From Escherichia phage XJA18-XJ-2024, in the sequence record PV584117.1: a stretch of DNA of 50,572 nucleotides, one strand, 5' to 3'. The translations under genes were made by a program, and so were the position numbers. This document shows positions 29,354 to 30,662 of this stretch, in pieces. The notes beneath the pieces were generated by a model that worked only from the letters and a program-made list of their open reading frames with translations, ran no database searches and had not been told where the DNA came from. Numbering within the stretch: position 1 is the first letter of the stretch; the number at the start of each line of letters is the position of its first letter.

Positions 29354-29374
29354 GTTTTAGCAATTCGTGCTATT
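29354..29374 (-). promoter_or_regulatory. promoter cassette box (AATAGCACGAATTGCTAAAA on minus strand)
   Basis: followed 22 bp later by TATAGT in a hairpin, then CATCGACAACGA box. Confidence 0.55.
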
Positions 29375-29942
29375 TATTGATGAACGTGGCGGCTATGTGA
29401 TGAGCGGTAATTTCTGGATGACCTTCGACAGAGAAGAAGTCACATTCCTGATAACCGTTAACCCCGATCATATCTTCCAGGTAGATATAGTCTCGACTGT
29501 CATTATCGAAGTTGCAACCGTTGCGATGTATTCGACATAGCTTGACCTGGATATCACCTTCAATCATCTGCAAGACTTCGTCTTTGAATCCACCATCAGT
29601 AAATACCGAAAGGGAGTGCGACTCTTTCACCTTGCTTTCCGCTCGCATACCGAAGAAGCGATTTCCGAACTGCGGCTTGATGACTTCCTCGCTAATCCAG
29701 ATCATAAACTGGCGCGGGCTTTTACCGTTCAGGATTGATGCTGGCTCTTCTTTATATCGACGGTCCTCATACAAGAACATGAAATACTCGTAGTTAGCTT
29801 CACCCAGGATTGCCCGGGCAATCTCAAACATTGGCGATTTGAAGCTGCGCAAGGCTACGTGATCGTAAGTGTCAGCAAGGATGCACCCGATAGTGTCTTT
29901 TCCCGCTCCCGGTGCGCCGTTTAAAATGATAGCTGTTTTCAT
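29370..29942 (-). CDS. P-loop kinase, polynucleotide 5'-kinase candidate
   Basis: 190 aa; Walker A GAPGAGKDT; adjacent to HAD phosphatase. Confidence 0.55.
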   Translation of the reverse strand: MKTAIILNGAPGAGKDTIGCILADTYDHVALRSFKSPMFEIARAILGEANYEYFMFLYEDRRYKEEPASILNGKSPRQFMIWISEEVIKPQFGNRFFGMRAESKVKESHSLSVFTDGGFKDEVLQMIEGDIQVKLCRIHRNGCNFDNDSRDYIYLEDMIGVNGYQECDFFSVEGHPEITAHHIAATFINK

Positions 29943-29946
29943 GTTA

Positions 29947-30054
29947 GTATCTCCCTAAAAATAACTTTGCCACATTGATGATGGTGTGATTGATGATTAA
30001 CAGGATGATAACCGTTAACACCGGATGTGCTGCAATAAATTCGTACAGGTTCAC
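29947..30054 (-). CDS. small hydrophobic peptide (tentative)
   Basis: 35 codons; GTG overlaps phosphatase stop (GTGA); AAGGAG 8 nt upstream; one predicted TM helix; below track length cut-off. Confidence 0.25.
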
Positions 30055-30662
30055 TTCAATAACTCCTTGCACTTAATGCATATTTTATCGCCAAATGGCG
30101 GTAGCGGCTCAGATGGTTCATGATTGCAAGCCTCATCTACGCCATGAGATTTTAAATGATCGTGAACATTATCGCCATAGTCAACTACAGCATACGTTGT
30201 TATTCCAAGAGAGCGGAATAATGGAATAATTTGCGGTGAGTCATCCCAAGCCGCCAAGATGTTCTCAATGCCGATAGCGCGCACTGCCTCTTCTTTCATT
30301 ACCGTGTCTTTGCGGTTGTCGGTATGCGGTCGCATGACTAAGTAATCATATCGAGCACCGTGATGCTTAAGCCATAACTCAGATGCGTAACGCACCTCAT
30401 CACTTCGCCCGGTTAAAATGATCACATGATACCCAGCGGCAAACATAGAGTTCATCACATCGATCGTGCTCTGGATTGGGTTATCAAATATTGCCGCTCG
30501 GTTAAACTCAGACCAGCTTTCAGTCAAGTGCAAATCCTTTGTCGGCAGCAGGTGAAGTCGACCAGATCCATCGCTAAGTGTCCCGTCAAAGTCAAAGATT
30601 GCCACGCGGCGCGTGCCGAGAAACAGGTTGATTGTCTGGCCCCAAATGGTGATTTTATCCAT
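30051..30662 (-). CDS. HAD-family phosphatase, polynucleotide 3'-phosphatase candidate
   Basis: 203 aa; HAD motif I FDFDGTL; conserved RBS; next to kinase. Confidence 0.6.
   Translation of the reverse strand: MDKITIWGQTINLFLGTRRVAIFDFDGTLSDGSGRLHLLPTKDLHLTESWSEFNRAAIFDNPIQSTIDVMNSMFAAGYHVIILTGRSDEVRYASELWLKHHGARYDYLVMRPHTDNRKDTVMKEEAVRAIGIENILAAWDDSPQIIPLFRSLGITTYAVVDYGDNVHDHLKSHGVDEACNHEPSEPLPPFGDKICIKCKELLK

Follow-up and report, generated by a model that had tools for sequence, protein, structure and literature searches.

A Pnkp-type phosphatase and a deoxynucleoside monophosphate kinase encoded side by side in a T1-like phage, with an accessory membrane-peptide gene between them

The genome of Escherichia phage XJA18-XJ-2024 (PV584117.1; 50,572 nucleotides, called the window here) carries a gene for a P-loop kinase next to a gene for a HAD phosphatase. 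Do these genes form a split polynucleotide kinase/phosphatase that heals tRNA cut by host anticodon nucleases, as a preliminary description made from the sequence had proposed, or do they serve another purpose? The window is essentially the complete genome of a T1-like phage (Tunavirus, Drexlerviridae), and a 1.7-kb region around the locus shares 92-96% identity with Shigella phage phiL, Escherichia phages LeonhardEuler (Bas13), IME18, JMPW1 and ADB-2, and others, the same genes being present in these relatives. Base composition across the locus is unremarkable, giving no sign of recent foreign origin. The two separate, adjacent genes were found at the coordinates given in the preliminary description; they lie on the minus strand, with a small open reading frame (ORF) between them, in the order phosphatase, small ORF, kinase. 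The small ORF overlaps the stop codon of the phosphatase gene as GTGA, as described, though it encodes 36 aa rather than 35. The locus is an already known, annotated and widely conserved pair of a Pnkp-type phosphatase and a deoxynucleoside monophosphate (dNMP) kinase, with an accessory membrane-peptide gene between them, and consists of the following features.

30051..30662, minus strand: stand-alone Pnkp-type HAD phosphatase, 203 aa, orthologue of T1 gp64, with FDFDGTL at residues 23-29
30054..30131, minus strand: facultative 26-aa C-terminal tail of the phosphatase, CxH...CxxC (C179, H181, C195, C198)
29944..30054, minus strand: gene for a 36-aa hydrophobic, single-pass membrane peptide, MNLYEFIAAHPVLTVIILLIINHTIINVAKLFLGRY, translationally coupled to both neighbours
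29370..29942, minus strand: deoxynucleoside monophosphate kinase (DNK), 190 aa, orthologue of T1 gp62, with the P-loop GAPGAGK15DT at residues 9-17

The kinase groups with dNMP kinases. It matches phrog_139 ('deoxynucleoside monophosphate kinase') at 8.9e-46, and this family also holds T4 gp1 (1.8e-65) and T5 Dnk (1.4e-51) over the same span of the profile (positions ~82-262), whereas T4 Pnkp falls in phrog_505 and phrog_2071; the T4 query sequences were verified as identical to PDB 1DEK and 1LTQ. A fold search also placed the kinase closest to the T4 dNMP kinase. Its P-loop, GAPGAGK15D16T, conforms to GxxGxGK-D with the catalytic Lys (K15 in the characterised kinase R1DNK of phage Rao1) and is of the GKD type seen in T4 gp1, T5 Dnk and phosphomevalonate kinase, with G14, K15 and D16 invariant across 37 homologues. 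The window kinase is nevertheless only ~12% identical to T4 gp1 (PDB 1DEK), lacks the ~35-residue insertion of that enzyme and is shorter than T4 gp1 and T5 Dnk (190 aa versus 241 and 250 aa, respectively). Searches of Pfam and NCBIfam returned sub-threshold P-loop matches only, and the Pfam DNMK model (PF21448) gave no match at E <= 1; this model is narrow, matching T4 gp1 in full but T5 Dnk only partially (4e-11). Searches of PDB sequences with the single kinase sequence and with its profile yielded uninformative matches at the level of the P-loop. The Pnk-clade 5'-kinase domain, with its GxxGxGKS/T P-loop and the Asp and Arg after strand 2 (T4 D35, R38), was not found in the kinase. At the place of the catalytic Asp-x-x-Arg of Pnk enzymes, the kinase family has SFKxP, and hhalign of this family against the T4 Pnkp kinase domain aligned the 26-residue P-loop and nothing more.

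Kongming-escape mutants of phage Rao1 map to gp58, named R1DNK (Zeng et al., bioRxiv 10.1101/2024.12.20.629578), the sequence of which is given in Table S1 of that paper. Purified R1DNK phosphorylates dAMP, dGMP and dCMP efficiently, and dTMP too; the K15A substitution abolishes its activity, its expression increases dADP in vivo, and its deletion slightly lowers dATP with no fitness cost (bioRxiv 10.1101/2024.12.20.629578). R1DNK triggers the Kongming defence, as do the DNKs of KarlJaspers and VAC2 (Drexlerviridae) (bioRxiv 10.1101/2024.12.20.629578). In BLASTP, the window kinase is 42% identical to R1DNK over 183 residues (E 8e-47), placing it in the sequence family of characterised DNKs, and the KarlJaspers DNK is 44.5% identical to it. 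Assignment of the window kinase to the dNMP kinases of the T4 gp1/T5 Dnk family, as predicted from these matches and from the activity of its orthologue R1DNK, is well supported. The preliminary description had itself named a nucleotide or dNMP kinase as the outcome that, for the kinase half, would speak against its proposal, and orthology to R1DNK with its proven dNMP activity thus leads to that outcome. With phrog_139 membership alongside T4 gp1 and T5 Dnk and 42% identity to a biochemically proven dNMP kinase, the kinase is not a Pnk-type polynucleotide kinase.

The phosphatase is a true relative of the Pnkp 3'-phosphatase domain, in agreement with the resemblance to T4-type Pnkp noted earlier. 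It passes the Pfam model HAD_PNKP (PF25109) with E 1.7e-16 and 61 bits against a cut-off of 27.6, matches phrog_415 at 2.7e-67, and in a sequence search of solved structures retrieved Capnocytophaga Pnkp1 (4XRP, 1.6e-7) and T4 Pnkp (1LTQ, 6e-4), both RNA-repair enzymes. Furthermore, hhalign of the phosphatase family profile against T4 Pnkp aligned the entire phosphatase domain (97.7%, E 1.8e-12, 127 columns). T4 residues D165, D167, R176, R213, R246, D254, K258, D277 and D278 correspond to window residues D24, D26, R35, R86, R111, D119, K123, D140 and D141, respectively, and the counterparts of all residues essential in the T4 3'-phosphatase are invariant or nearly so across the phosphatase family; the window protein has a HAD (DxDxT) 3'-phosphatase domain including T4 D165, D167, R176, R213, D254, D277 and D278. 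Unlike T4 Pnkp/PseT (PDB 1LTQ, 5UJ0) and Capnocytophaga Pnkp1 (4XRP), the window phosphatase is a separate protein without a Pnk-type kinase domain, and the database names 'polynucleotide kinase' and '3'-phosphatase, 5'-polynucleotide kinase' are thus misnomers. Its activity is more likely that of a 3'-phosphatase, though specificity within the phosphatase clade is not readable from sequence. Alleles of 177 and 203 aa are almost identical apart from the 26-aa tail, which corresponds to a clean in-frame indel of 78 nt. Its Cys/His pattern is retained in homologues at 55-60% identity and duplicated in the homologue P0117, and an AlphaFold2 model shows a short beta hairpin following a disordered linker; the tail is probably a facultative small zinc-binding knuckle or ribbon.

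T5 Dmp, a 5'-dNMPase protecting T5 from Kongming (bioRxiv 10.1101/2024.12.20.629578), raises the question of whether the phosphatase is instead a Dmp-like 5'-deoxyribonucleotidase, which would lower dNMP, especially dAMP, for pool balance or to blunt Kongming-like defences exploiting the phage dNMP kinase. T5 Dmp is a remote member of phrog_415 (3.6e-57, full length), has the same HAD catalytic motifs as the window phosphatase (DxDGT...HR, T/S-x-R, KD...K and DD) and accompanies a phage dNMP kinase. Homologues of Dmp are often found together with DNKs, and Dmp protects against Kongming (bioRxiv 10.1101/2024.12.20.629578); a kinase paired with an NT5C nucleotidase in rV5-like phages, Cronobacter phage CR3 and Vibrio phage S4-7 also makes kinase plus nucleotidase a recurrent theme. 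However, T5 Dmp is far more distant from the window phosphatase than T4 Pnkp is, and its gene, a pre-early one, lies a long way from dnk in the T5 genome. With the hidden Markov model (HMM) of the T1-type phosphatase, T4 Pnkp reached 2.1e-8 and Dmp proteins no better than E 0.33, the Dmp HMM scored T1-type phosphatases at E 0.39-14, and hhalign of the phosphatase family gave 70.9% over 66 columns with Dmp, compared to 97.7% over 127 columns with T4 Pnkp. No significant direct similarity to the Dmp proteins of T5, Bas26 and VPG01 was found beyond the common PHROG. Rao1 has an orthologous phosphatase directly upstream of its DNK, yet it is Kongming-sensitive, dAMP rises during its infection, and T5 Dmp in trans rescues it (bioRxiv 10.1101/2024.12.20.629578); in Rao1, the T1-type phosphatase does not substitute functionally for T5 Dmp. 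Moreover, a 5'-dNMPase coupled or fused to a dNMP kinase would mean futile competition for one substrate. On the HMM scores, the hhalign results and the Rao1 phenotype, a Dmp orthologue was rejected as the leading model, and we regard a Dmp-like role as quite unlikely. T5 Dmp (L095 124-858) has no Pfam match, and phrog_415 is annotated as 'polynucleotide kinase', a name which, given that Dmp belongs to it, mislabels both Dmp-type and T1-type stand-alone phosphatases.

Are the two genes more than neighbours? The kinase profile retrieved 83 related loci, and ~75 of them have the phosphatase upstream of the kinase with both on one strand, an adjacency far beyond chance. Three kinds of spacing separate the two genes, namely stop/start overlaps of 4 or 1 nt, a small ORF of 108 nt, or inserted DNA of 0.3-2.1 kb. 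In Drexlerviridae, overlaps by ATGA or 1 nt are frequent, and Era103 and LAh3 (Autographiviridae) have an overlapping pair as well. Searched exhaustively with an HMM, 1.84 billion representatives yielded 4915 family members, and a Pfam domain check of the best 150 of these revealed two natural fusions, P0233 (403 aa) and P0241 (461 aa). Both are metagenomic proteins with HAD_PNKP at the N-terminus and a DNK-type kinase at the C-terminus. Two samples contain P0233, on three contigs in all, one of them a 60.7-kb phage contig. Its identity to the two window proteins is 46% and 50%, and the gene after it encodes a homologue of the T1 gp16/Rao1 gp56 metallophosphoesterase ('DNA repair exonuclease', phrog_704). 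P0233 is located at L098 8001-9212 and also in L099, and P0241 at L100 498-1883; the linker motif GPELHG is common to both. At the position equivalent to T4 D254, P0233 has no Asp (NRSSTEMKKEE).

Rao1 is, like the window, a T1-like phage with a phosphatase, gp57 (58% identity), directly upstream of a dNMP kinase (42%, same K15 P-loop). In Rao1, unlike in the window, the pair is preceded by the gene of the metallophosphoesterase nuclease and lies beside this gene and the lysis genes, there is no small ORF between the enzymes, and the phosphatase is without a zinc tail. Rao1, Era103 and LAh3 each have the nuclease, phosphatase and kinase genes as an uninterrupted trio. The KanT1 paper noted this trio in many Drexlerviridae and proposed a role in nucleotide supply (PMC13164509). 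The window homologue of T1 gp16/Rao1 gp56 (44529-45665, minus strand; 65% identity) is a calcineurin-like metallophosphoesterase of phrog_704 with an apparent N-terminal segment resembling a helix-turn-helix; in many other phages, this gene adjoins the phosphatase-kinase pair.

Phosphatase and kinase could also do unrelated jobs, such as DNA-end repair by the former and deoxynucleoside triphosphate (dNTP) supply by the latter, and be neighbours merely through an inherited early or DNA-metabolism block. The kinase occurs without the phosphatase in many lineages, each gene also exists alone (Pnkp-type phosphatases in 2408 phage records and the kinase in 1430), and the spacer tolerates 0.6-2 kb insertions of unrelated small genes or an HNH endonuclease, all of which would suit such independence. 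Stop/start overlaps nevertheless recur in three phage families, and two diverged in-frame fusions from independent samples are hard to explain without a common pathway; unrelated jobs thus seem unlikely to us, and the phosphatase and kinase are functionally linked. The earlier idea of the pair as a joint system survives in this respect, with functional coupling and fused homologues in its favour, though the kinase is a DNK and not of the Pnk type. Persistent coupling and natural fusions leave a very small chance that the Pnkp-type phosphatase and the DNK-type kinase are a new two-subunit bifunctional enzyme, in which a protein with the dNMP-kinase fold would replace the Pnk kinase and which would act with the gp16-type metallophosphoesterase on nucleic-acid ends or 3',5'-bisphosphate nucleotides. 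In rV5-like phages, CR3 and S4-7, the kinase gene is followed by a different HAD enzyme (phrog_420; Pfam NT5C, PF06941, 5'-nucleotidase) with an N-terminal DVDLT or DVDNT motif (L084 6600-7193, L092 6638-7249 and L091 6644-7234), indicating that dNMP kinases have been joined with HAD phosphatases at least twice, from different phosphatase families.

How much of a split Pnkp remains? As an end-healing system, it would comprise a 3'-phosphatase and a 5'-OH polynucleotide kinase repairing nuclease-cut RNA or DNA, which a host ligase would seal. In both sequence and structure, the nearest matches of the phosphatase are the phosphatase domains of RNA-repair enzymes, the zinc-knuckle tail of some alleles could bind nucleic acid, and the tight gene coupling is accompanied by fusions in the phosphatase-kinase order of mammalian PNKP. 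Furthermore, the Era103 pair lies between the metallophosphoesterase and an ATP-dependent DNA ligase, the kinase has a ligase as its neighbour in CPP1m and Bp7, and R1DNK, as far as its paper reports, was assayed on mononucleotides only. The kinase, however, argues against this reading through its SFKxP in place of the Pnk catalytic Asp-x-x-Arg and through its orthologue R1DNK, a proven dNMP kinase. Mammalian PNKP (PDB 1YJ5, 3ZVL) has, like the gene pair and P0233 and P0241, a HAD phosphatase of the same clade and then a P-loop kinase, but the latter is a true Pnk-family 5'-OH DNA kinase, PNKP also contains an FHA domain, and no homology to the window kinase was detected beyond the P-loop. Compared with T4 Pnkp, which has both activities on one polypeptide with the kinase N-terminal, the window has two genes with a third ORF between them, the adjacent kinase is from a different P-loop kinase family, and the order is reversed; the fused homologues likewise have the phosphatase first, followed by a DNK-type kinase.

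The observation that no ligase was recognisable holds, in that the annotations of T1 and of the closest relative, phiL, contain none, and tblastn with one ATP-dependent and one NAD-dependent phage DNA ligase gave no match in the window. A partner RNA ligase (Rnl1-type), such as that of T4 Pnkp, and other tRNA-repair partners are likewise lacking by annotation (T1, phiL), though RNA ligase sequences were not searched directly. E. coli RtcB joins 3'-P to 5'-OH ends directly, and removal of the 3'-phosphate would counter sealing by this host enzyme. Literature searches on phage Pnkp in anti-defence roles and on structural details of T4 dNMP kinase found nothing useful, and the paper on retron Eco2 refers to Drexlerviridae and PNK in passing only. 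With no ligase and a dNMP kinase in the locus, a tRNA-healing role finds no support, and we consider a split Pnkp very unlikely.

Considering these results, the locus is probably a nucleotide-salvage or nucleotide-pool module rather than one for the repair of broken tRNA, the phosphatase substrate and the salvage logic being what we infer. The broad-specificity dNMP kinase would turn dNMPs, for example from degraded host DNA, into deoxynucleoside diphosphates, from which host Ndk would make dNTPs for phage DNA synthesis. The phosphatase, on the same mRNA and translationally coupled to the kinase, may strip 3'-phosphates from DNA or RNA breakdown products, with 3'-phosphorylated ends, 3',5'-bisphosphates or 3'-mononucleotides as candidate substrates. 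Removal of the 3'-phosphate would let these products become 5'-dNMPs fully, feeding the kinase, and the phosphatase probably works with the metallophosphoesterase nuclease (T1 gp16 type). In larger phages, the kinase gene lies beside genes for thymidylate synthase, ribonucleotide reductase and dUTPase. Several points weigh against a salvage module. The 3'-phosphate specificity of the T1-type phosphatase is presumed from homology only, and the remote membership of T5 Dmp, a 5'-dNMPase, in phrog_415 implies that specificity can shift within the phosphatase clade. Most DNases leave 5'-phosphates, and 3'-phosphorylated products of T1-type host-DNA breakdown are hypothetical. The nuclease gene of the window (44529-45665) lies ~14 kb from the phosphatase-kinase pair, and in seven of nine sampled lineages outside Drexlerviridae the kinase occurs without a Pnkp-type phosphatase, having thymidylate synthase, ribonucleotide reductase, dUTPase or DNA ligase genes as neighbours. 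Finally, Rao1 deleted for its kinase showed no measurable loss of fitness (bioRxiv 10.1101/2024.12.20.629578), suggesting that salvage is not essential in laboratory conditions.

The small ORF between the enzymes, described earlier as a possible small membrane peptide, proved to be a real gene for a hydrophobic product. Among 14 alleles, its 21 variable sites comprise 17 synonymous and 4 non-synonymous ones, compared to 4:17 and 1:20 in the other two frames, the expected synonymous fraction being 0.23; 15 of the 21 lie at codon position 3. The small ORF is thus under purifying selection. Its GTG start (30054..30052) overlaps the phosphatase TGA (30053..30051) and has a perfect AAGGAG Shine-Dalgarno sequence 8 nt upstream, its TAA stop (29946..29944) is 1 nt from the kinase ATG, and the Shine-Dalgarno sequence of the kinase lies inside it. 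In all 14 alleles, whether or not the phosphatase has its 26-aa tail, the ORF begins with an ATG or GTG that overlaps the phosphatase TGA; the small ORF keeps the chain of translational coupling from phosphatase to kinase unbroken. The peptide has a grand average of hydropathy of 1.25, with 19-residue windows up to 2.2, and the records of LeonhardEuler, CLB_P3, Sfin-3 and others list it as a 'hypothetical protein'. It is absent in T1, which has an HNH endonuclease gene in its place, and disrupted in the related phage L050, and is thus a dispensable accessory gene at a variable spot. A remnant of the T1 HNH gene was considered as its origin and rejected, in view of the purifying selection on the ORF and the lack of any match to T1 gp63 in a tblastn search of the window. 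The phosphatase-kinase junction is an insertion hotspot. The HNH homing-type endonuclease gp63 of T1 (NC_005833, 5465-5959) occupies exactly the site of the zinc tail and small ORF here (window 29943-30131), and other Drexlerviridae have 0.3-2.1 kb of unrelated small genes at the same junction, several of them encoding membrane proteins.

The three genes are bracketed by copies of a promoter-like cassette, built around a 21-nt box, AATAGCACGAATTGCTAAAAC, with the dyad TAGCA-N5-TGCTA.

30663..30747, minus strand: promoter-like cassette upstream of the phosphatase, with the box AATAGCACGAATTGCTAAAAC, a hairpin with the -10-like TAGAAT, and the leader CAATCAGAGGAAT
29298..29374, minus strand: next copy of the promoter-like cassette, directly past the kinase stop codon, where the three-gene unit ends and the following one starts
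994-1014, 29354-29374, 30727-30747, 31247-31267, 32794-32814, 35133-35153 and 46492-46512, minus strand, and 38212-38232, plus strand: copies of the 21-nt box

The box was noticed by eye, and a pattern search of the window confirmed these 8 copies, against an expectation of 0. Some 5 nt past each box is a GC-rich hairpin with TATAGT, TAGAAT or TATGAT in its loop or 3' arm, followed by the conserved leader CAATCAGAGGAAT with a Shine-Dalgarno sequence and then a start codon; all copies have the same architecture, and all lie before genes. The phosphatase gene has one copy ahead of it, and the next copy comes just after the kinase stop codon, indicating that the phosphatase, small ORF and kinase constitute one transcription unit. 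Some of the box-associated hairpins, including the one after the kinase, are annotated as terminators in OL960578, the latter as rho-independent. A standard scan of the locus for sigma-70 promoters and terminators gave nothing over shuffled background. The cassettes look like a family of phage promoter or regulatory elements dividing the early region into small units. Elsewhere in the window, the listing of ORFs contains a 212-aa ORF (31617-32255, minus strand) with an apparent internal duplication, the two segments starting MKFEC(V/I)S..., and a hydrophobic C-terminal tail.

The label 'polynucleotide kinase' on T1 gp64-type proteins is wrong for the kinase part, these proteins being phosphatase-only, and the dNMP kinase that exposes T1-like phages to Kongming is the gene product next to them, labelled 'hypothetical protein' or 'P-loop NTPase'. 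The capacity for tRNA repair should not be assumed for T1-like phages. If the two-subunit enzyme considered above were real, it would mean an undescribed three-enzyme end-processing or salvage pathway with a non-orthologous Pnkp. The reason for the persistent coupling of a Pnkp-type phosphatase with a dNMP kinase could reveal a step in the recycling of host nucleic acids by small lytic phages.

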